This document shows positions 1 through 12,496 of a stretch of DNA of 36,706 nucleotides, piece by piece (the stretch's first letter is position 1; each line of letters starts with the position of its first letter). Both the position numbers and the translations under genes were made by a program. Below the pieces are notes generated by a model. The model was not told the origin of the DNA. It did not search any database and saw only the letters and a list, made by a program, of their open reading frames with translations. The DNA is from a virus (lineage: Duplodnaviria; Heunggongvirae; Uroviricota; Caudoviricetes). The stretch lies in the IMG/VR virus record IMGVR_UViG_2529293140_000002. One strand, given 5' to 3'.

Positions 1-1053
1 TTACGGGGTAATGCCAACCGCTGCCGCCACTTTGTCGCCACTTGGCAGCGTTGCCAGAGGATTGAAACGGAGCGCCGTTTCCAGATGATCCGGTGCCAGA
101 TGTGCGTAACGCATAGTCATTTTTATATCGTGGTGTCCGAGAATTTTTTGTAAGGCCAGAATGTTTCCACCCGACATCATGAAGTGCGCCGCAAACGTAT
201 GGCGCAGAACGTGTGTGAGTTGACCGCGAGGGAGCACGATAGACGTTTTTTCCATCACGGATAAAAATTGAAAATAGCAGTCTGTGAAGAAATTGAACCC
301 ATCAAGCGCCATGATCTCTTCGTAAAGCTCTTTACTGATAGGGATGCTTCTGTTTTTCTTCCCCTTCGTTCTTACAAAGGTAATTCGGTATTTGGTCACC
401 TGTGAACGAGTAAGATTTACGGCTTCTCGCCAGCGTGCGCCTGTGCTTAAGCATATCTTAACTACCAGTGCCAGAATTGGGTCCTGACGTTTGCAATCAG
501 CCAGTAATTCAACAATCTGCTCATGGGTAAGCCATGCCATCTCTTTTTCTGCGATGGTGAATTTTCGCATGTTCTCCAGTGGGTTCGGATACGACCATTC
601 GCCCAGGCGGGATAGTTCGCTAAAAACACTACTTAGATAGCTTTGCTCCAGGTTAATGGTGACCGGGCTTGCTCCTTTCTTCCATTTCTCGCTGAAGTAG
701 ATCTCACCTGTCAGGCGTTTATCTCGATAGTGGGCAAACATTTTAGAGGTTAGATCAGTTGCAAGGGGATTGCCCAGAGCGTCAACCATCAGCAGCAATT
801 TGTCATAGACATGCTGCCCAGCAGTCAGTGATTTACCATGTAGTTTGAACCATAGCTCAACCACGTCTTTCAGTGTTCGACGATCCACTGATTCACCTAG
901 CCAGGGCTTTGCTTCGGTTTCTTCCATCGTGTGACGCTCAAAAGCCAGTGCTTCGCCTTTGGTGGCGAATTGTTTACGCACACGACGCCCACTACGTCCG
1001 GCGGGGTAACATTCGCAAAGCCATTTTCCTGTGGTGAGTTTTCGTACAGCCAT
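1..1053 (-). CDS. int: Tyrosine integrase, P2/186 family
   Basis: ORF 1-1131 minus; likely start is the ATG at 1053-1051 (MAVRKLTTGKW...) preceded by GGAGGG; C-terminal catalytic region with HxxRHT-like motif (LTHVLRHTFAAH) and tyrosine (MRYAHL). Stop codon sits at window positions 1-3. Last codons overlap the att core repeat. Confidence 0.9.
   Translation of the reverse strand: MAVRKLTTGKWLCECYPAGRSGRRVRKQFATKGEALAFERHTMEETEAKPWLGESVDRRTLKDVVELWFKLHGKSLTAGQHVYDKLLLMVDALGNPLATDLTSKMFAHYRDKRLTGEIYFSEKWKKGASPVTINLEQSYLSSVFSELSRLGEWSYPNPLENMRKFTIAEKEMAWLTHEQIVELLADCKRQDPILALVVKICLSTGARWREAVNLTRSQVTKYRITFVRTKGKKNRSIPISKELYEEIMALDGFNFFTDCYFQFLSVMEKTSIVLPRGQLTHVLRHTFAAHFMMSGGNILALQKILGHHDIKMTMRYAHLAPDHLETALRFNPLATLPSGDKVAAAVGITP
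19..40. repeat. att core, left copy (CGCTGCCGCCACTTTGTCGCCA)
   Basis: 22-bp sequence repeated in direct orientation at 33852-33873 with one mismatch (C at 30 versus T at 33863); flanking sequence diverges on both sides; lies at the integrase 3' end as expected for a P2-family attachment site. Confidence 0.6.
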
Positions 1054-1241
1054 AAAAAATGCCCTCCAATAGAGAGCATTTTTACTGTATGTATAACCAG
1101 TGTCAATGTATGAAATCCTGCGACCATACATCTCACTGAAGCCATAATGAAGTAGGCTATTCTTTTTGCTATGTGATCATGTAACTTTTGCGGTTAACCT
1201 GTGGCTCATTTTTATTTTAGGCGCAGATATAAAAGCAAAAG

Positions 1242-1433
1242 TTATCGTGAGTTTTTAGTACAGATTTTTTTGGATTTACTAATAGTTCCATCATTGCAAA
1301 CGAATTTGCCATCAGAGGTACAGTGAGAAACACCTCCCTTTTTCCCTGAGCAGGGATAATTTCTAGCATAGGTAGCTAGTGGGTTTAATAACAAAGAACA
1401 TGACAAAACCACAAAAAATACCTTACCAAGCAT
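1242..1433 (-). CDS. Small secreted cysteine-containing peptide, hypothetical (candidate moron)
   Basis: 63-aa ORF with an N-terminal hydrophobic signal-like segment ([23 protein letters not shown]) and a Cys-rich mature part; GGGAG Shine-Dalgarno 6 nt upstream; lies 15 bp downstream of the cI stop on the same strand; AT-rich relative to the phage backbone. Confidence 0.45.
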
Positions 1434-1448
1434 AATTTACTCCCGGTA

Positions 1449-2018
1449 CTATTTAACATACTTGACTGTTAAACTTATAATTTTACCAATTATTTCAATG
1501 TCTTCTATCTTACATTCAAAGGCTCTGTTTCCACCCTCGACGAAGATTCTTCCACCGGGTAAACGAGTAATGTCACGGATCGTTATTTCGCCATCAATAC
1601 TTATTACCCATTTACCATCACGTATATCATCAAATTCCTTATCACAAATAAATTCAGAATTATTATCTGTGATTACAAAAAGATTCTTGAATGCCGACGG
1701 TAGAAATTCTCTATCGAAAATATAAAAACCGTCTTCACACAAGGCCCCATCAGATAATACATATTTAGCAACTTCCATAGTATTTGTATTACCTGAAGTT
1801 TGCTTTGAACCATGCCCGGTTGTGAGCCAATTAAGCGAGGTGCCTGTTTCAAGGGCGCACTGGATTACCCATTCTGCTGGGAATGAGTCACGCATGTAGC
1901 GTGTGGCGAGTGTACTTTTAGAGATTCCTAAATGATCGCACAACGCCTGTCGAGTCTTGAATCCATAAGCTTCTACCATGCGCTCTATGGCGCCTCGTCC
2001 GCCTTTCTCCAAATTCAT
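1449..2018 (-). CDS. cI: CI-type immunity repressor (phage 186 CI-like)
   Basis: ORF 1449-2024 minus; likely start ATG at 2018-2016 with GGAG upstream; N-terminal region (EAYGF...LGISKSTLATRY...CALETGTSLNWLTTG) resembles the 186 CI helix-turn-helix domain as I recall it; position between int and the rightward early operon. Confidence 0.75.
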   Translation of the reverse strand: MNLEKGGRGAIERMVEAYGFKTRQALCDHLGISKSTLATRYMRDSFPAEWVIQCALETGTSLNWLTTGHGSKQTSGNTNTMEVAKYVLSDGALCEDGFYIFDREFLPSAFKNLFVITDNNSEFICDKEFDDIRDGKWVISIDGEITIRDITRLPGGRIFVEGGNRAFECKIEDIEIIGKIISLTVKYVK

Positions 2019-2042
2019 GGTCACTCCAAGTGAACTTTTATC

Positions 2043-2143: not shown

Positions 2144-2365
2144 ATGAGACCTAACATTTCAATCACTCTTACCACGCCTCATGTGACTATTGAACGCTAT
2201 AGCGAGCTGACAGGGCTATCCATCGATACCATCAATGACATGTTGGCTGATGGACGCCTTATCCGTCACCGTCTGCGCAAAGATAAAAAACGCGAAAAAG
2301 TGATGATCAACATAGCAGCAATGACCGTTGATGCGCTTTCAGAATGCAATCTAAACCTTAATTAG
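2144..2365 (+). CDS. Apl/Cox-like excisionase and transcriptional regulator (small HTH protein)
   Basis: 73-aa ORF, first gene of the rightward operon opposite cI, basic C-terminus; position equivalent to P2 cox and 186 apl. Confidence 0.55.
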
Positions 2366-2397
2366 TTCGATTCTGAAATACATCAGAGGCATTGACC

Positions 2398-2907
2398 ATG
2401 TTTGATTACCAAGTTTCCAAACATCCACATTTTGATGAAGCCTGTCGTGCATTTGCACTGCGCCACAATCTGGTGCAACTGGCAGAACGTGCAGGCATGA
2501 ATGTGCAGATTCTGCGGAACAAGCTGAACCCAGCTCAGCCTCATTTATTAACCGCACCAGAAATCTGGCTGCTTACCGATCTGACTGAAGATTCAACGCT
2601 GGTAGATGGTTTTCTGGCACAGATTCATTGTCTGCCATGTGTACCGATTAATGAGGTGGCAAAAGAGAAACTGCCACATTACGTCATGAGTGCAACCGCA
2701 GAGATCGGGCGTGTTGCTGCAGGTGCGGTGTCTGGCGATGTAAAAACCTGTGCCGGTCGTCGTGATGCTATCAGCAGCATTAACTCTGTAACACGACTGA
2801 TGGCGCTGGCGGCTGTTTCATTGCAGGCCCGTTTACAGGCTAATCCTGCGATGGCGAGTGCAGTTGATACCGTGACTGGCCTCGGTGCTTCATTTGGTTT
2901 GCTGTGA
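2398..2907 (+). CDS. cII: CII-like lysogeny establishment activator (phage 186 CII family)
   Basis: ORF 2392-2907; ATG at 2398 gives [20 protein letters not shown]...[25 protein letters not shown], which matches my recollection of 186 CII closely; size about 169 aa. Confidence 0.75.
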
Positions 2908-3487: not shown

Positions 3488-3721
3488 ATGCGTAATATTG
3501 AAACCCTCTCGACCAAAACCGGACCGGATGACGCAGGGCTTAATATTTTACTGACAGAGGCTCGTCTGGAAGAACGCCGGGCAAGGGCTGAAGCAATGGC
3601 AGCTCGCCTTGATAGCTTGGCGTGTCATATCACATCCCGCCAGCTAACCCACGTCGAAGCGGCAGAACTGCTTCGTGTGACTGCTGAAGCAATCCAGAAC
3701 GAAGCGCAGGAGATCCACTAA
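3488..3721 (+). CDS. Early-operon protein, hypothetical
   Basis: ORF 3482-3721; ATG at 3488 preceded by AGGAGA; stop overlaps the next start (TAATG). Confidence 0.5.
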   Translation: MRNIETLSTKTGPDDAGLNILLTEARLEERRARAEAMAARLDSLACHITSRQLTHVEAAELLRVTAEAIQNEAQEIH

Positions 3722-3948
3722 TGGCTGATGCAATGGATCTCGTACAGCAGCGCGTTGAAGAAGAACGCCAACGCCATATCCGTGCTGCCCGTGCCAAAAC
3801 GCCGGGCGTGTCCCGCGTGCTTTGCATTGAGTGTGAAGCGCCAATTCCGCCAGCACGCCGCCGTGCCATTCCGGGTGTGCAGCTTTGCATTACCTGTCAG
3901 GAAATCGCAGAGCTGAAAGGCAAACATTACAACGGAGGTGCTGTATGA
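3721..3948 (+). CDS. TraR/DksA-family C4 zinc-finger protein
   Basis: 75-aa ORF with CxxC...CxxC spacing (CIECEAPIPPARRRAIPGVQLCITCQ) typical of phage and plasmid TraR/DksA-like zinc fingers. Confidence 0.7.
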   Translation: MADAMDLVQQRVEEERQRHIRAARAKTPGVSRVLCIECEAPIPPARRRAIPGVQLCITCQEIAELKGKHYNGGAV

Positions 3949-4802
3949 GCACCATCCTGAAATGGGCGGGAAATAAAACTGCCATAATGTCCGAACTGAA
4001 AAAACATCTTCCTGCTGGCCCGCGACTGGTTGAACCTTTCGCGGGTTCCTGTGCTGTGATGATGGAGACGGATTATCCCAGCTATCTGGTTGCGGATATT
4101 AATCCTGATTTAATCAACCTCTATAAAAAGGTTGCCGCTGATTGTGAATCGTTTATATCTCGCGCCAGAGTTTTATTTGAGATCGCAAACAGGGAGGTGG
4201 CTTATTACAACATAAGGCAGGAGTTTAATTACTCAACTGAAATTACTGATTTCATGAAAGCGGTATATTTCCTGTATCTCAATCGTCACGGTTACCGTGG
4301 TTTATGTCGCTATAACAAGAGCGGGCATTTCAACATTCCCTACGGTAATTATAAAAATCCGTATTTCCCTGAAAAAGAAATTCGCGCATTTGCAGAAAAG
4401 GCCCAGCGAGCAACGTTTATCTGCGCCAGCTTTGATGAAACGCTGGCGATGTTGAAGGCGGGGGATGTGGTGTATTGCGATCCGCCGTATGACGGTACGT
4501 TTTCCGGCTATCACACTGACGGCTTCACTGAAGATGACCAGTATCACCTGGCATCTGTTCTTGAACATCGGTCATCAGAAGGACATCCGGTCATTGTTTC
4601 TAACAGTGACACATCCCTGATCCGTTCGCTGTATCGCAATTTTACTCACCACTACATCAAGGCAAAACGCAGCATCGGTGTGGCAGCTGGCGAGGGTAAA
4701 TCAGCAACAGAAATCATTGCTGTTTCCGGGCCGCGCTGCTGGGTGGGATTTGATTATTCGCGTGGCGTGGATAGTTCTGCCGTGTACGGAGTACGTGCAT
4801 GA
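3945..4802 (+). CDS. dam: DNA adenine methyltransferase (Dam family, N6-adenine MTase)
   Basis: ATG at 3945 with GGAGGT upstream; N-terminal SAM-binding region (LKWAGNK...[10 protein letters not shown]) and the DPPY catalytic motif (VYCDPPYDG); stop overlaps the gene A start (ATGA). Confidence 0.85.
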
Positions 4803-7213
4803 GTCATGCCGATATGAACAACTGCTGCGGCTTTAACGAAGCTGCCGCATCGTTCTCATGGAACAGCTCGAAAAAGGCCATTAACCCTTATCTGGACCCG
4901 GTGGAAGTTGCGCCGGTTTCTACGCTTTCAAACCTGATCACTCTGTACGCTGCCGATAACGAGCAGGAACAGCTGCGCCGTGAGGCGCTGAGTGATCAGG
5001 TCTGGGAGCGTTATTTCTTTAATGAATCCCGTGATCCTGTCCAGCGCGAAATGGAACAGGATAAGCTCATTAGTCGGGCAAAGCTGGCGCATGAGCAGCA
5101 GCGTTTTAATCCGGATATGGTCATTCTGGCGGACGTCAACGCCCAGCCTTCCCATATCAGCAAGCCGCTGATGCAACGTATTGAATACTTCAGCAGCCTG
5201 GGCAGGCCAAAGGCTTATTCCCGCTATTTACGTGAGACGATTAAGCCATGTCTGGAACGACTGGAGCATGTACGCGACAGTCAGCTATCTGCATCTTTTC
5301 GCTTTATGGCAAGCCATGAAGGGCTGGACGGCCTGCTGATCCTGCCTGAAATGAGTCAGGATCAGGTGAAACGCCTGTCCACCCTGGTAGCTGCGCATAT
5401 GAGTATGTGCCTTGATGCCGCTTGTGGCGATTTGTATGCCACCGATGACGTTAAGCCAGAAGAAATCCGCAATACATGGGAAAGGGTGGCAGCGGAAACC
5501 CTGCGTCTGGATGTCATCCCGCCTGCGTTTGAGCAACTCCGTCGGAAAAGAAACCGCCGTAAACCCGTGCCCTATGAACTCATTCCGGGTTCGCTGGCGC
5601 GTATGTTGTGCGCCGACTGGTGGTATCGGAAATTATGGAAGATGCGTTGCGAATGGCGGGAAGAGCAGTTGCGTGCTGTCTGCCTTGTCAGCAAAAAAGC
5701 ATCTCCCTATGTCAGCTATGAAGCCGTGTTGCATAAACGTGAGCAGCGCCGTAAGTCGCTGGAGTTTTTCCGTTCTCATGAACTGGTGAACGAAGACGGC
5801 GACACGCTAGACATGGAGGATGTGGTAAACGCCAGCAGCAGCAACCCTGCGCATCGCCGCAATGAGATGATGGCCTGTGTTAAAGGTCTGGAGCTTATCG
5901 CGGAAATGCGCGGTGACTGCGCCGTTTTCTACACCATCACCTGTCCGTCACGTTTCCATTCCACGCTAAATAACGGCAGGCCCAACCCGACCTGGACAAA
6001 TGCGACGGTAAGACAAAGCAGCGATTATCTGGTCGGTATGTTTGCTGCATTTCGTAAGGCGATGCACAAAGCCGGGTTGCGCTGGTATGGCGTGCGGGTG
6101 GCTGAGCCGCATCACGACGGCACAGTTCACTGGCACCTGTTGTGTTTCATGCGCAAAAAAGACCGCCGCGCCATTACAGCATTGTTGCGTAAGTTTGCTA
6201 TCCGTGAAGACCGCGAGGAGCTGGGCAATAACACGGGGCCGCGCTTTAAGTCTGAGCTGATTAACCCGCGCAAAGGAACGCCGACAAGCTACATAGCGAA
6301 ATACATCAGTAAGAACATTGACGGGCGTGGTCTGACTGGCGAGATCAGCAAGGAAACGGGTAAATCTCTGCGTGATAACGCTGAATACGTGAATGCCTGG
6401 GCGTCTTTGCATCGTGTTCAGCAATTCCGCTTCTTTGGCATTCCGGGGCGTCAGGCTTACCGTGAACTGCGATTGCTGGCTGGTCAGGCGGCAAGGCAAA
6501 AGGGGGACAAAAAAGCAGGTGCGCCGGTACTGGATAACCCGCGCCTTGATGCCATCCTGGCTGCTGCTGATGCTGGTTGTTTTGCCACCTACATCATGAA
6601 GCAGGGCGGCGTACTGGTTCCCCGTAAATATCACCTCATCAGAACCGCTTATGAAATCAACGAAGAGCCGACCGCCTATGGCGATCACGGCATTCGTATT
6701 TATGGCATCTGGTCACCCATTGCAGAGGGCAAGATCTGCACTCATGCAGTGAAGTGGAAAATGGTTCGTAAAGCCGTTGACGTTCAGGAGGCGGCAGCCG
6801 ACCAGGGCGCTTGCGCCCCTTGGACTCGTGGCAATAACTGTCCCCTTGCTGAAAATTTGAACCAACAGGAGAAAGATAAATCAGCTGATGGGGACACCAG
6901 AACGGACATTACCCGCATGGATGACAAGGAGTTGCACGATTACCTGCACAGTATGAGCAAAAAAGAGCGCCGGGAACTGGCTGCAAGGTTACGCCTGGTG
7001 AAACCGAAACGGCGTAAAGACTACAAACAGCGAATTACAGACCATCAGCGACTGCAGCTCGTCTATGAGCTGAAGTCCAGAGGATTTGATGGTAACGAGA
7101 AAGAGGTCGATTTACTCCTTCGCGGCGGCAGTATTCCGTCAGGAGCAGGCCTGCGTATCTTCTATCGGAACCAGCGTTTGCAGGAAGATGATAAGTGGCG
7201 GAACCTGTATTAA
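4799..7213 (+). CDS. A: Replication initiation protein A (P2 gpA-like rolling-circle endonuclease)
   Basis: 804-aa ORF; conserved blocks recognisable from P2 gpA ([45 protein letters not shown]...AYRELR). Confidence 0.9.
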
Positions 7214-7799: not shown

Positions 7800-8243
7800 G
7801 AAATGTTGCCCCCAGGAGGATTCATTCTAATGGGGGCTAGTTTGGGCAACGAGTGAAACGAGGCGTAAGGTGGGTAATCATTTTGATAAGTGATCGCCCA
7901 CTTTGTGCCAAAAGCGGACATCGCAGATATGACAATATGTTAGTCAACCGCGATTAGATCAGTCAGTTGGAGATGGGGGGAAGTTACAAAAACTTGTCGT
8001 CCGCCATCTCCGACTACGGGTATTCTTAACTGTACATGCTCTTTCAATCGATGATTTTTGAGTAAGTGACTAACCTATTGTTTTGATAGTAATTAAACGT
8101 ATAAACGTGCGGAGTTAATTTGAAAGTTATGTGTCTATGTTTGACAAGCAAAATTTTAAAGATTGGTTTTATCCACAGGTAATTTATGCTATTAATAGCC
8201 TCAAGCCCTGTAATTATTTTTATTTAAATGGATAAATTTGAAA

Positions 8244-10364
8244 ATGAGTACATATCATAATGATCAGCCAATACTAGGTGGTCAAAATGACCCCGATTTA
8301 TTAAACAGGCTCGATTTTGCAAATCACTTGGCAAATATTCTACTATTAAATCACAATGATGATTGCCTTACTGTATCTATAGAGGCAGAGTGGGGATATG
8401 GTAAAACGTCAGTGATAAATCTTATAAAAGGTGCTTTGAATGAAAAGGAGTTCTTACCAATAATAATAGAATATAATCCATGGCTGGCCGGTCAACCTGA
8501 ATCCTTGATTCAGGATTTTTTATTACAGTTCTCTTCACAACTAAATATTAAAGACAATTCAAAAGCTGCTTTGGAAGCTTCAAAAGAATTAATTGCATAC
8601 TCCAATCTCTTCAGTGTAGCAAAACTTATTCCAGGGACAGAACCTTGGGCATCTATCATAGAAAAAGTCCTCTCTAATTTTGGGAGTGCTACTAAAAAGA
8701 TTGCTGAATTAAAAAAACTGGATCTTTTAGGTAGAAAAAAACAAGTAGAGAAGGCAATAAAAAAAATAAAAAATCCTATTGTGGTAATAATTGATGATAT
8801 TGATCGATTGACTCCTGCAGAAACTTTTCAAGTTTTACGATTGGTTAAAGCAGTTGCAGATTTCTCAGGAACTTCTTTTTTACTTGCATTTGATCCTAAT
8901 TATTTGATTTCTGTGCTTGATAAAAATAATATCGTCAATTCTTCGGAGTATCTTAATAAAATTGTTCAACTTCGAGTCCCACTTCCTGTAATCTCAGAAA
9001 GGGGTATGAATGAACTTGCAAATGCAGAACTGGAAAAGATAGCTAATAAATCTTTAACTGACAGATTCGAAAGTGATCAAGAAAGACTAAGCTGGATTTA
9101 TCATAATTATTTTAAAAAACTAATTAAGAATCCGAGAGAGTTAAAAAGATTTTTTAACCATTTGAGATTCGTTTTAGAGCAAATTGAAGGGCAGGTATGT
9201 TTTTCTGATCTCTTTGCTTTATCTCTGGTCGCCACTAAATCGAGTTTGGTATACGAGCATATTAAAAGCACACCAGAGGCATATATAGGGAAGAGATTCA
9301 CTAATGATGGCCTTTTGATGGATAAACCTCAAGATATTGTGGATAGATTTAGTGATGAGCGAAATAAGAAACTGAGTAATTTTTCTGATCAAGAGCGTTC
9401 AGTGATGCAGGAACTCTTAGGAGATATTTTCCCACTTCTACAGTCAAGCGGGTATTCTCATTATGGGGTTTCTGATCCCGATACAGCAGGAAGGGTTTCT
9501 GCACCACAAAGGCTTCATATTGCGTTTCATTATAAAACTCCAGCAGGGTATATTTCTGATCATGATATTATCAGTTTCATTAATGGAGATGTCAAAAGAA
9601 ACGAATTTCTAAGAGATGTGCTCTCGCAAAATGCAGAAGAAAGATTTTTTGAAATGATGAATAATTATTCGAGTTATTGTAAGGATAATAGTTTTGAAAT
9701 ATTAACGTGTATTTATGATACTTTTCTGTTTTCTCAAGAATTGAAATCCTCATTGGAAAGAAACTATGGTTTTTTGACAAAAGATCTTTATAGAAGGATG
9801 AATTGGCTCACTAATAAGGTAATATCTGAAAGTGATGATAAATATGGGTTAATAAAGGGGGTTGTAGGTAGGCATGAGAATGCGCCACTTGGTGCAGACG
9901 TATTATGCCAAGCTCGTAAACAGATTCAAAATGGATGGAATGACAAAATATGGGTTAGTATTGAAGAATTGGCTGAACTTGAAGGTATCTTTCAACAGGT
10001 GGCTATTAAAGTTTTAAGTGATAAAATATATTTTGATTATCATCTTGAATCTCATATATTTTTCGAATTAAAGAGAGTTTCATCTCAATTTACATCAGAG
10101 TTTATTGCTTCTGTATTATCAAGTGATGGCCTGATTAGGATGTGTGAGATTATTGGTGAAACAGGTAGTGATTCAACAAATGGCCCTTATTTTAAGTTTG
10201 ATGAAATTTACTTCGGGGAAATACTTGATGTGAATGAACTTCGAAATAAAGCGAAAAATTTAGATTTTTCAATTTATCCCACACGCATTCAAGCTGTACT
10301 TAAGAGTATTCTGGATGGACAAAAATATTATTTGAGAGATGCAACTGTTGGTGAAGATTGGTAA
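8244..10364 (+). CDS. KAP-family P-loop NTPase
   Basis: About 706 aa from the ATG at 8244 (the track ORF starts at a TTG at 8238); Walker A WGYGKTS at 8391-8411 and Walker B hhhhDDIDR (IVVIIDDIDRL) at about 8781-8807, the characteristic KAP NTPase signatures; strongly AT-rich compared with the phage backbone. Confidence 0.8.
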   Translation: MSTYHNDQPILGGQNDPDLLNRLDFANHLANILLLNHNDDCLTVSIEAEWGYGKTSVINLIKGALNEKEFLPIIIEYNPWLAGQPESLIQDFLLQFSSQLNIKDNSKAALEASKELIAYSNLFSVAKLIPGTEPWASIIEKVLSNFGSATKKIAELKKLDLLGRKKQVEKAIKKIKNPIVVIIDDIDRLTPAETFQVLRLVKAVADFSGTSFLLAFDPNYLISVLDKNNIVNSSEYLNKIVQLRVPLPVISERGMNELANAELEKIANKSLTDRFESDQERLSWIYHNYFKKLIKNPRELKRFFNHLRFVLEQIEGQVCFSDLFALSLVATKSSLVYEHIKSTPEAYIGKRFTNDGLLMDKPQDIVDRFSDERNKKLSNFSDQERSVMQELLGDIFPLLQSSGYSHYGVSDPDTAGRVSAPQRLHIAFHYKTPAGYISDHDIISFINGDVKRNEFLRDVLSQNAEERFFEMMNNYSSYCKDNSFEILTCIYDTFLFSQELKSSLERNYGFLTKDLYRRMNWLTNKVISESDDKYGLIKGVVGRHENAPLGADVLCQARKQIQNGWNDKIWVSIEELAELEGIFQQVAIKVLSDKIYFDYHLESHIFFELKRVSSQFTSEFIASVLSSDGLIRMCEIIGETGSDSTNGPYFKFDEIYFGEILDVNELRNKAKNLDFSIYPTRIQAVLKSILDGQKYYLRDATVGEDW

Positions 10365-10956: not shown

Positions 10957-11532
10957 ATGCTTTTACCCGTAAGTGTTACATCGTGTGGCTTGTATCACCC
11001 CTACTGGCATTTGGGAGAGCGCAACCCTCATAGCGATGAACTATCAAGGCAGATGATGGATTTTAAGGATGAAAATAATCGTAATCATCAAAGGGCTATT
11101 AACCGTTTTTCTCGATTAGCTATAGATAAGGTTGGGCGGTTAGTAATCAGAGGTGGCGGTGGGCGTTTTGTTGAGTCTCCTTTTTCGATAGCAGTCGTCC
11201 CATCTCACACTGAAGGCAGAATTTCACCGGCTTTGATTGAGGTCGCCGAGCGAATCGTAAATGTTCACCGTCGGGGCATTGTTGATTGCTGTTTGGAAAG
11301 AACACGCACTGTTCCTAGCGCACATCGTGAAGGAGGAGATCGCTCAATTACTGGTCACATGTCTAGTATCAGAGTTAGGGGTGGTAACCTCATGGGGCGA
11401 AATGTGTTACTACTAGATGATGTTAAAACAACAGGCGGTAGTTTGTCTGCGTGTTTTTATTTACTGGAGTCTGCAGGAGCTGGAGTTATAATGCCATTAG
11501 CTCTGCTAGAAACTGCAAACTATGAGGAGTAG
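10957..11532 (+). CDS. Phosphoribosyltransferase-domain protein (ComF-like PRTase); candidate toxin or effector
   Basis: 191-aa ORF; type I PRTase PRPP-binding signature VLLLDDVKTTGGSL at 11404-11442 plus upstream ComF-like blocks (SIAVVPSH, LERTRTVPSAHRE); N-terminus uncertain because a possibly frameshifted ORF 10700-10972 lies upstream. Confidence 0.7.
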   Translation: MLLPVSVTSCGLYHPYWHLGERNPHSDELSRQMMDFKDENNRNHQRAINRFSRLAIDKVGRLVIRGGGGRFVESPFSIAVVPSHTEGRISPALIEVAERIVNVHRRGIVDCCLERTRTVPSAHREGGDRSITGHMSSIRVRGGNLMGRNVLLLDDVKTTGGSLSACFYLLESAGAGVIMPLALLETANYEE

Positions 11533-12496
11533 CAAAGTGCACTCAGAAGAATTAAAAAATACACTTGGATTAGCTATTCAAATCGGGAAGCTAGCATCTG
11601 ATCAAAGTGTATTGAAATTCTTTGAGCTTATTGATTTTGATGTTATTCGTGATATACGCGACTTAACTGAGATGGTTAATAGCCACGGGTTTCTAAAAGA
11701 TAAAATATCTGAGACTGATTTTCTAATAGCGAATGCTGAATTGGAGAACCACCATGTTAATGGTGTGGAGCTAATACCATATGGGTCTGAATTCTATCCT
11801 CTTAGTTTAGCGTTTACTCCTAATCCACCATCAATTCTCTACATAAAAGGGGATAAAAGTATACTAAAAGAATTGCCGGGTGTCGCAATTGTAGGATCCC
11901 GTGATACTTCCCCTGCAGGGGAAGAAATAACGAGGCGAATCACTAATCAGATAGTGTCTGCTGGGTATATTGTTGTAAGTGGGTTAGCAATAGGCACTGA
12001 TGCGAATGCTCATAAGGCAACGTTACAAGCAAAAGGAAAAACCATTGCTGTCTTGGCGCATGGTCTTGAGGAGGCTAAGCCGAAGCAAAACAGTCGACTT
12101 GCTCAAGAGATTCTGGATAAAGGTGGTGCATGGATTTCTGAGTATCCTATGGGGCGACCGGCCCAGAAACAATCATTTGTACAAAGAAATCGGATACAAG
12201 TTGGATTATCTGCAGGTTCAATTTTAATCGAGGCTGCGTTAAATAGCGGAACGATAACTCAAGCTGAGTTTGCAAATAAGGCTAAAAGACCAGTGTTTGC
12301 GGTTGTACCTCACCTACCTAATAATCCGCTTAATCTTAATTGTGAGGGAACAGTTGATTTAGTTAAGAGCAACATGGCTAGAGCGTTAAAAACAAAACGG
12401 GATTATGATGATGTGATTATGATCATAAATGAGTCTCGGGAGTATTTGTTAGAGCTAAAATGGCCAGGGAAACAGAGTACATTAGACTTGATTTAA
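11522..12496 (+). CDS. DprA/Smf-like Rossmann-fold protein; candidate antitoxin or partner of the PRTase
   Basis: 324-aa ORF overlapping the PRTase stop (alternative GTG at 11537 after GAGGAG); DprA signature VAIVGSR...VVSGLAIGTDANAHKA...IAVLAHGL...SEYP...RNRI...LIEAALNSG...RPVFAV. Confidence 0.75.
   Translation: MRSSKVHSEELKNTLGLAIQIGKLASDQSVLKFFELIDFDVIRDIRDLTEMVNSHGFLKDKISETDFLIANAELENHHVNGVELIPYGSEFYPLSLAFTPNPPSILYIKGDKSILKELPGVAIVGSRDTSPAGEEITRRITNQIVSAGYIVVSGLAIGTDANAHKATLQAKGKTIAVLAHGLEEAKPKQNSRLAQEILDKGGAWISEYPMGRPAQKQSFVQRNRIQVGLSAGSILIEAALNSGTITQAEFANKAKRPVFAVVPHLPNNPLNLNCEGTVDLVKSNMARALKTKRDYDDVIMIINESREYLLELKWPGKQSTLDLI

Follow-up and report, generated by a model that had tools for sequence, protein, structure and literature searches.

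A small gene between the repressor and integrase genes

The sequence analyzed here, hereafter the window, is a 36,706-nucleotide stretch of DNA from a virus of the Caudoviricetes (IMG/VR virus record IMGVR_UViG_2529293140_000002). Between the genes for a prophage repressor (cI) and an integrase (int) it contains an open reading frame (ORF) of 63 codons that an original prediction, made from the letters alone, had singled out as a gene for a small exported peptide containing cysteines, tightly coupled to cI. The ORF is present on the minus strand with a matching translation, and we find that it is a genuine member of the YdcA family, whose founding member is YdcA of Escherichia coli K-12. Gene and family are already named in public annotation, and the window copy is a prophage-borne member of an uncharacterized family. 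The gene, its product and its upstream neighbor are laid out as follows.

1242..1433, minus strand: ydcA-like coding sequence, 63 codons plus a TAA stop codon (1242-1244), from the ORF list, NF007463, phrog_6000 and dN/dS
1365..1433, minus strand: predicted Sec signal peptide, amino acids 1-23, cleavage after Ala23, from hydropathy, the -3/-1 rule and the invariance of Ala23
1245..1364, minus strand: predicted mature peptide of 40 amino acids with four Cys and a net charge of +7, from the conserved motif, the AlphaFold2 (AF2) model and the match to Dis2
1440..1444, minus strand: Shine-Dalgarno sequence GGGAG, 6 nt 5' of the ydcA ATG and within the cI-ydcA gap, read from the sequence
1449..2024 (RefSeq 1449..2018), minus strand: gene for a 186-type CI repressor, upstream in what is probably the same operon, from Pfam (Phage_CI_repr 2.8e-33, Phage_CI_C 2.7e-27)

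The cI stop codon, TAG, occupies 1451..1449, and the gap to ydcA is 15 nt (1434..1448). The proposed tight coupling to cI is borne out by this gap, by the GGGAG 6 nt before the ATG, and by terminator prediction, which placed no terminator between the two genes and gives no sign that the cI transcript ends before the ORF. The ydcA region is AT-rich (31-39% GC), and the first 4 kb of the window hold 41 ORFs of at least 30 amino acids, so the length of the ORF alone says little; both observations would favor a chance ORF or a non-functional spacer. That explanation is refuted by the conservation data described below.

Family membership and purifying selection

With the curated hidden Markov model (HMM) NF007463 of NCBIfam (PRK10040.1-2), the window protein scores 114.6 bits against a cut-off of 93, its residues 5-63 aligning to model positions 1-58 of 58. 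It also matches phrog_6000 (3e-34), a PHROG of unknown function; its RefSeq/PGAP name (WP_001513672.1) is "YdcA family protein," and an identical protein (P0001) carries the precomputed Pfam label PF27300. A Pfam-A search of the window protein returned just a spurious sub-threshold match (PF22906, E 0.076). The peptide, left nameless in the original prediction, belongs to a named family (K-12 ydcA, NF007463, PF27300). At least 1000 contigs carry the exact protein sequence. Among 5426 complete E. coli genomes, 648 contain DNA of the ORF region, and in 592 of these (about 11% of all) the coverage reaches at least 80%; in the E. coli matches listed, the annotation at the site is "phage repressor protein CI" together with a protein called hypothetical or YdcA-family.

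Purifying selection on ydcA is extreme. Among alleles sharing ~91-98% nucleotide identity, a Nei-Gojobori comparison with allele L009 gave 11 differences at 42.8 synonymous sites and 2 at 146.2 nonsynonymous sites (omega ~0.05). Over the 34-codon core of the mature region (within window 1245-1364), comparison with the diverged locus L014 (6001-6186) gave 20 differences at 21.5 synonymous sites and 2 at 80.5 nonsynonymous sites. This synonymous value exceeds the ~75% expected at saturation, as if the two lineages were biased in opposite directions in codon use or GC content. With the curated HMM cut-off passed, dN/dS at ~0.05, synonymous change near saturation, and homologs spread across Gamma-, Beta- and Alphaproteobacteria, a chance ORF in an AT-rich spacer, the outcome under which the original prediction was to be abandoned, has a negligible probability.

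A predicted exported four-cysteine peptide

The reading of the ORF as a real gene for a small, cysteine-containing exported peptide holds up on the curated HMM, conservation, selection and the features of the leader, with export as a prediction. The leader has a basic n-region (MLGK), a hydrophobic core of 12 residues (residues 5-16; Kyte-Doolittle means over 9 residues of 2.2-2.7) and a site of the signal-peptidase-I type, TYA↓R. Ala23 is invariant in an alignment of 31 homologs, in which the signal peptides otherwise diverge, and after the leader a stretch of 34 residues is near-invariant in homologs from Enterobacteriaceae, Moraxella and Herbaspirillum. The mature peptide of 40 amino acids has a pI of 9.7 and nine Lys and Arg against two Asp and Glu; in addition to its four Cys, a fifth Cys of the precursor sits within the signal peptide. 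Every position of the conserved motif PCSGxKGG[VI]SHC..F[VI]CNDG[ST]xSxSKKxC is present in the window protein. Across 150 family representatives C38 and S52 are invariant, and P27, C28, S29, K32, G33, G34, F44, C46, D48, G49, S54 and C58 are at least 90% conserved. AF2 models the core of the mature domain with a pLDDT of 86-90. These features give good support to the predicted Sec export, cleavage after Ala23 and formation of two disulfides in the periplasm; for K-12 YdcA, too, a signal sequence and a predicted periplasmic location have been reported (PMC11340327).

Two other identities for the product were considered and rejected. A lipoprotein would need a conserved lipobox: the sole candidate is VLSC (Cys at residue 12, Leu at -2), homologs have I, V or F at -1 or lack the Cys, and the conserved boundary at the end of the leader is A23↓[RK]NYPCS. 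An arbitrium-like communication peptide is contradicted by the identity of the mature peptide, which is 89-95% between prophages that share only 69-71% identity in CI. The product is also a folded four-Cys domain that occurs on chromosomes and plasmids and fused to nucleases, and there is no AimR-like gene at the prophage locus.

A structural relative in the Legionella Dot/Icm system

The top match in a profile search of the Protein Data Bank (PDB) was Dis2 (Lpg0823; 7MUC chain AN, E 5e-5), and Dis2 was also the top Foldseek match (probability 0.97, 38% identity), so that the window peptide and a lobe of Dis2 resemble each other in both sequence and fold. A truncated Dis2 homolog bears the precomputed label PF27300. 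Dis2 has two lobes with five disulfide bonds and lies beneath the outer membrane in the Dot/Icm cap (PMC8486379), where it contacts DotK, DotC and the DotD N terminus (PMC8486379, PMC12716638). Its authors described it as Legionella specific and without structural relatives (PMC8486379, PMC12716638), and it has been reported to be dispensable to the type IV secretion system (T4SS), in structure as well as in function.

Like Dis2 (PDB 7MUC/7MUD), the window peptide is a small fold pinned by disulfides with the motif C-x-K-x-GG-[VI]-x-x-C...G-x-x-VCN-[ND]-G-x-x-S, and it is predicted to share the periplasmic location of Dis2. Unlike Dis2, a stoichiometric T4SS subunit with two lobes and five disulfides, it has one lobe and four Cys, is highly basic and has no T4SS nearby; the P2/186-like prophage locus holds no T4SS genes. 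The basic SKSKK motif, invariant in YdcA proper, is missing from Dis2. Among relatives Dis2 alone has a solved structure, and the window peptide shares its fold and is not its ortholog. Dis2 itself appears to have arisen when the widespread YdcA domain was duplicated in tandem (7MUC chain AN; P0227, P0228).

Tandem forms and fusions to secreted nucleases

A family profile search of 1.84 billion cluster representatives (50%-identity library, E up to 0.001) returned 468 clusters with a YdcA domain. Among them are tandem YdcA proteins with two and three copies (for example, P0078-P0082). Pfam domains fused to YdcA in the top 150 representatives include Endonuclease_NS in three, SNase in two and PLDc_2 in one; examples are P0118 and P0226 (SNase), P0169 and P0170 (Endonuclease_NS) and P0183 (phospholipase D [PLD] type). 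DUF4124, PBCV_basic_adap, VasL and TerY_C are the other domains found fused. The recognized extra domains are therefore dominated by secreted nucleases of three unrelated superfamilies, and the nuclease fusions run in the order signal peptide, YdcA domain, linker, catalytic domain. A likeness to domains of the DUF3761 type (CxDGxxSxS...CSxHGGV) was considered, but that Pfam family matched none of the 150 representatives, and no claim is made of it.

Recurrent linkage of YdcA to the repressor

The wider immunity region of the window contains three further genes.

1..1053, minus strand: tyrosine integrase gene (int), downstream neighbor of ydcA, from Pfam (Int_N, Phage_integrase) and the RefSeq annotation of the identical locus
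2144..2365, plus strand: Apl/Cox-like gene, from Pfam and PHROG searches of the neighbors
2392..2907, plus strand: CII/CP76 gene, from Pfam and PHROG searches of the neighbors

A CI with Phage_CI_repr and Phage_CI_C domains, together with the Apl/Cox-like and CII genes, makes this immunity region 186 type and not P2 type; the original comparison with P2 is corrected in that the repressor beside ydcA is not of the P2 C type. In RefSeq E. coli the identical locus is part of a complete prophage of ~34 kb between rcdA and ybjL, with the integration site adjoining rcdA. In SEN8, the canonical relative, int comes directly after cI, their annotated coding regions being 3 nt apart, which marks ydcA as extra cargo in the cI-int interval. 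To that extent the proposed insertion between repressor and integrase genes stands. The insertion is not a one-time event: YdcA genes recur beside cI in prophages of four enterobacterial genera (E. coli, Klebsiella, Hafnia and Yersinia) as well as in Haemophilus phage HP2, and the immunity types concerned are divergent.

In six other prophages the cI-YdcA gap is -1 to 49 nt. In HP2 the YdcA gene is an unannotated ORF of 60 amino acids whose ATG overlaps the cI stop codon. Diverged YdcA copies in E. coli and Klebsiella prophages stand in the order cI-YdcA-KAP NTPase-int; the Hafnia copy is cI linked and followed by a protein of 347 amino acids, and the Yersinia copy is cI linked and followed directly by int, as in the window. 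Across these loci identity to the window CI drops to 35-38%, with the mature peptide 77-95% identical. The cI and ydcA genes are co-linear with those of L014 at 72% nucleotide identity, which indicates co-inheritance as one immunity module. A comparison of module boundaries showed that the int module, including the hairpin before int, is common to phages with other cargo. Window positions 1142-1264 stand in place of the KAP gene of the JA0072 locus, with the junction in the last eight codons of ydcA. The enterobacterial prophages compared have no conserved neighboring gene.

Relatives use the cI-int interval as a slot for cargo, which includes known or candidate defense genes. In L007, at the same rcdA site, PD-Lambda-1 (558 amino acids; 3591-5267) directly follows cI and there is no YdcA gene; the cargo of Klebsiella phage 4LV2017 is a hypothetical protein of 349 amino acids. 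Downstream of YdcA, L013 (1142-2473), L014 and L018 (6198-7529) and L029 (5247-6290) encode a KAP NTPase that matches PADLOC PDC-S20 (2.4e-171) or an unclassified protein of 347 amino acids with a hydrophobic N-terminal region. A 2026 survey described the integrase-to-primase interval as a minor defense hotspot of P2-like prophages, with 8% of their systems (PMC13586616). YdcA is unlike the swappable cargo of the slot in that it stays attached to cI.

E. coli B carries a defective prophage with this gene: in L009, from the B derivative T7Express_Crystal (NZ_CP053594.1), cI-ydcA-int is intact, and cII and the replication endonuclease gene are annotated as pseudogenes. Common laboratory B strains thus have a natural prophage copy of ydcA.

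Transcription and RNA structure

Folding shows an unusual degree of structure in the 188-nt spacer between ydcA and int (z-score -5.3 for 1040-1260), and two features stand out.

1055..1083, minus strand: hairpin of 13 bp followed by U6, ending 1 nt before the int ATG (1053-1051) and containing the int Shine-Dalgarno sequence GGAGGG, from folding (-20.8 kcal/mol)
1180..1246, minus strand: 3' structured region with a 10-bp inverted repeat, UAACUUUUGC ... GCAAAAGUUA, and no U-tract, from RNA folds

The int Shine-Dalgarno sequence lies within the 3' arm of the hairpin at 1055-1083, whose stem is invariant in five alleles, with just one loop base varying. A simple terminator scan did not list this hairpin; folding found it. 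It is likely a terminator or attenuator that closes the cI-ydcA operon and masks the int ribosome-binding site, and as such it would limit expression of int from the repressor transcript. The 10-bp inverted repeat (TAACTTTTGC ... GCAAAAGTTA) is perfect and begins at the ydcA stop codon. An Rfam search of 900-2300 returned just a chance microRNA match (E 0.42). We infer, with good support from the layout of the genes, that cI and ydcA are co-transcribed and would be expressed constitutively in lysogens.

YdcA genes outside the slot

The founding member, K-12 YdcA, is a protein of 57 amino acids with a predicted periplasmic location and unknown function (PMC11340327). Like K-12 YdcA (b1419), the window protein combines a Sec leader with a four-Cys domain of ~35 amino acids (PCSGxKGG[VI]SHC...FVCNDG.S.SKK.C). 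Unlike the chromosomal K-12 gene, the window copy is prophage borne and probably co-transcribed with CI; the two leaders are unrelated, and DNA similarity is limited to one 87-bp match at 77%. The stand-alone chromosomal copy of E. coli lies between cybB/rydC and hokB, and stand-alone chromosomal copies occur in core contexts of two further lineages, one of them Moraxella bovoculi. Deletion of ydcA in E. coli W causes sensitivity to 300 mM 3-hydroxypropionate, a phenotype that deletion of yieP fully suppresses, and ydcA expression was reported to rise at pH 5 under YdcI (PMC7642389). A sigma-S constitutive promoter has been mapped in the rydC-ydcA intergenic region (PMC5493296), and ydcA has been reported to be up-regulated in a pnp mutant.

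In a tblastn search of a phage collection, no enterobacterial phage isolate carried ydcA; the matches were phages of Moraxella, Acinetobacter, Haemophilus and Pseudomonas. YdcA lies among head and tail genes in those of the Moraxella and Acinetobacter phages that were inspected. YdcA also occurs on small Acinetobacter plasmids, one of only 4 kb. The UniRef name of the exact protein, "Conjugal transfer protein," could not be substantiated and was probably propagated: the plasmid homologs lie outside transfer operons, except that on one mobilizable plasmid of 4 kb YdcA adjoins a TraD-like gene.

The genes that come after YdcA in Moraxellaceae encode weakly related proteins whose N-terminal segment is hydrophobic (L033 5186-5884; L026 878-1609; L003 3623-4075). 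These downstream proteins, from the M. bovoculi chromosome, an Acinetobacter plasmid and a Moraxella phage, match one another by blastp at E 1.7e-4 and 3.8e-8 and have no Pfam domain. YdcA and the downstream gene may form a lineage-specific two-gene module in this family. A general two-gene system with a downstream partner was rejected, the downstream proteins of ~230-350 amino acids in HP2, Hafnia, Acinetobacter plasmids and the Moraxellaceae chromosome being mostly unrelated.

Possible functions of the window peptide

The explanation that we consider best, and to which we would give an even chance, is that ydcA follows cI as the closing gene of a two-gene lysogenic operon in a 186-type (P2-like) prophage integrated beside rcdA, and encodes a periplasmic YdcA-family peptide with a polyanion-binding or exclusion-type role. 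Transcription from the repressor promoter would read through ydcA and largely stop at the hairpin before int, so that the peptide would be made constitutively in lysogens. The 63-amino-acid precursor would be exported by Sec and cut after Ala23, and the 40-amino-acid mature peptide (+7) would be pinned by two disulfides in the periplasm. There it would bind a polyanionic polymer, most likely DNA, and at the envelope would oppose foreign DNA or phage on its way in. This mechanism, in which a free-standing, non-enzymatic module binds a polyanionic polymer in the periplasm of the lysogen, is one that we put forward tentatively, as a possibility on the doubtful side. The tandem copies, the use of the domain as the N-terminal module of three secreted-nuclease superfamilies, and its strong basicity suggest a polyanion, perhaps DNA, as the ligand, and an exclusion-type effect fits the defense genes that occupy the cI-int slot of sister prophages. 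Lysogenic conversion or superinfection exclusion, as originally suggested, may be its role, and we regard the gene as a good but unproven candidate for altering the envelope of the lysogen.

A broader version, which is rather improbable, would make YdcA an unrecognized periplasmic mini-domain for binding DNA or polyanions, one that targets nucleases, has been duplicated into Dis2 and, as the free copy that 186/HP2-type prophages keep fastened to the repressor gene, intercepts foreign DNA in the periplasm of lysogens. If true, lysogens from E. coli to Haemophilus would share a new mechanism that excludes superinfecting phage and conjugative and transforming DNA at the level of the envelope.

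Several observations weigh against a polyanion-binding or exclusion-type role. Dis2, the sole solved relative, binds proteins (DotK, DotC and DotD) and not DNA, and it does so without the SKSKK motif; fusion to nucleases could mean anchoring to the envelope instead of binding to substrate. The DNA of tailed phages is normally shielded as it crosses the periplasm, so it is not obvious how a free DNA-binding peptide would exclude them. The housekeeping chromosomal copies and the copies in late structural operons of Moraxella and Acinetobacter phages point to a general envelope function that is not specific to lysogeny. A PADLOC search with the window protein matched no family at E up to 0.01, and the literature searches returned no functional study of any YdcA protein. 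Co-transcription with cI, for its part, is deduced from the 15-nt gap and the lack of a predicted terminator, and a consensus scan of the minus strand did not locate the lysogenic promoter.

Alternatively, the peptide may be an envelope factor for stress and fitness that, as is hinted for chromosomal ydcA, protects against acid or organic acid and in stationary phase, and benefits growth or survival of the lysogen, a form of lysogenic conversion, without excluding phage. The 3-hydroxypropionate sensitivity of the E. coli W deletion and the induction at pH 5 under YdcI (PMC7642389) are what such a factor would lead one to expect, as are the sigma-S promoter (PMC5493296), the stand-alone chromosomal copies in core-gene contexts, the presence of the gene as cargo on a 4-kb Acinetobacter plasmid, and the retention of cI-ydcA-int in the defective E. 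coli B prophage despite pseudogenes for cII and replication. We nevertheless think this rather unlikely, as the 3-hydroxypropionate phenotype disappears fully on yieP deletion, and neither the nuclease fusions, tandem forms and Dis2 relationship nor the close and repeated association with cI, in a slot otherwise used by defense genes, would be explained. Resemblance to Dis2 could instead point to an adaptor that docks on lipoproteins close to the outer membrane or on OmpA-like proteins and so hides or reshapes a receptor for phages, a secretin or a contact site for conjugation or a T4SS. That Dis2 is the only solved relative, that its place is close to the outer membrane, in contact with DotK, DotC and the DotD N terminus (PMC8486379, PMC12716638), that UniRef names the exact protein "Conjugal transfer protein," a name probably propagated, and that in Moraxellaceae YdcA precedes a weakly conserved, membrane-anchored protein that might be a partner all speak for an adaptor. 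Such a role seems unlikely, however, given that the mature peptide keeps 77-95% identity across the loci from E. coli to Haemophilus and ~75% to the Moraxella copies and no protein partner is known to be so widely conserved, that the enterobacterial prophages offer no conserved neighbor gene, that Dis2 has lost the basic motif invariant in YdcA proper, and that Dis2 is itself dispensable to its T4SS.

The arrangement cI-YdcA-KAP NTPase-int in E. coli and Klebsiella prophages, in which both YdcA and CI are diverged, raises the further thought that the window gene is a remnant or accessory of a two-gene cargo whose PDC-S20 KAP NTPase partner has been lost. The match of the KAP gene to PADLOC PDC-S20 is strong (2.4e-171), and the window and JA0072 differ exactly at that gene, with the junction in the terminal ydcA codons noted above. 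YdcA occurs without a KAP gene, however, in Yersinia, Hafnia, HP2 and the ~590 E. coli genomes with this allele, and KAP-less ydcA is still under strong purifying selection; the varied cargo that follows YdcA in different phages argues for nested insertion into a hotspot and not for a fixed pair. We regard a lost partner as very unlikely.

Comparison with exclusion systems

In phage lambda, rexA and rexB are co-transcribed with the prophage repressor, and T4 Sp and Imm, phi80 Cor and T5 Llp are exclusion proteins located in the envelope. Read as a polyanion-binding or exclusion-type gene, ydcA resembles rexA and rexB in its position downstream of the repressor in the probable lysogen transcript, and Sp, Imm, Cor and Llp in the predicted envelope location of its product. 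Unlike known exclusion and defense proteins, it has no sequence or profile similarity to them (PADLOC, PHROG), and unlike proteins of the Cor and Llp type it is not a lipoprotein. It shares with PD-Lambda-1 and the PDC-S20 KAP NTPase the same slot and sometimes the same att site by rcdA. Those are large cytoplasmic or membrane proteins of the NTPase type, whereas YdcA is a peptide of 40 amino acids, predicted to be exported, that stays attached to cI even where cargo is inserted downstream.

About one in nine complete E. coli genomes carries the gene for this peptide attached to a prophage repressor. A sequence of 40 residues that stays constant while CI falls to 35-38% identity should have a definite target. 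Discovery of the target would assign a function to the YdcA family, including the K-12 gene, would provide a functional lead for Legionella Dis2, and would reveal if the cytoplasmic defense systems known from the repressor-integrase slot of P2/186-like prophages are joined there by a factor for exclusion or fitness at the envelope. Neither the linkage to repressors of the 186/HP2 type nor the relationship to Dis2 nor the nuclease fusions of YdcA were found in the literature searched; all three make the family experimentally approachable, and the natural lysogens include E. coli HS and B strains, which are in standard laboratory use.

Elsewhere in the window, the primase-portal hotspot holds plus-strand genes at 8238-10364, 10957-11532 and 11522-12496, which encode a PifA-like KAP NTPase (PADLOC PifA, 6.7e-65) and a Shosta-like pair (ShosT, 3.6e-14; ShosA, 2.8e-70, with a DprA domain).

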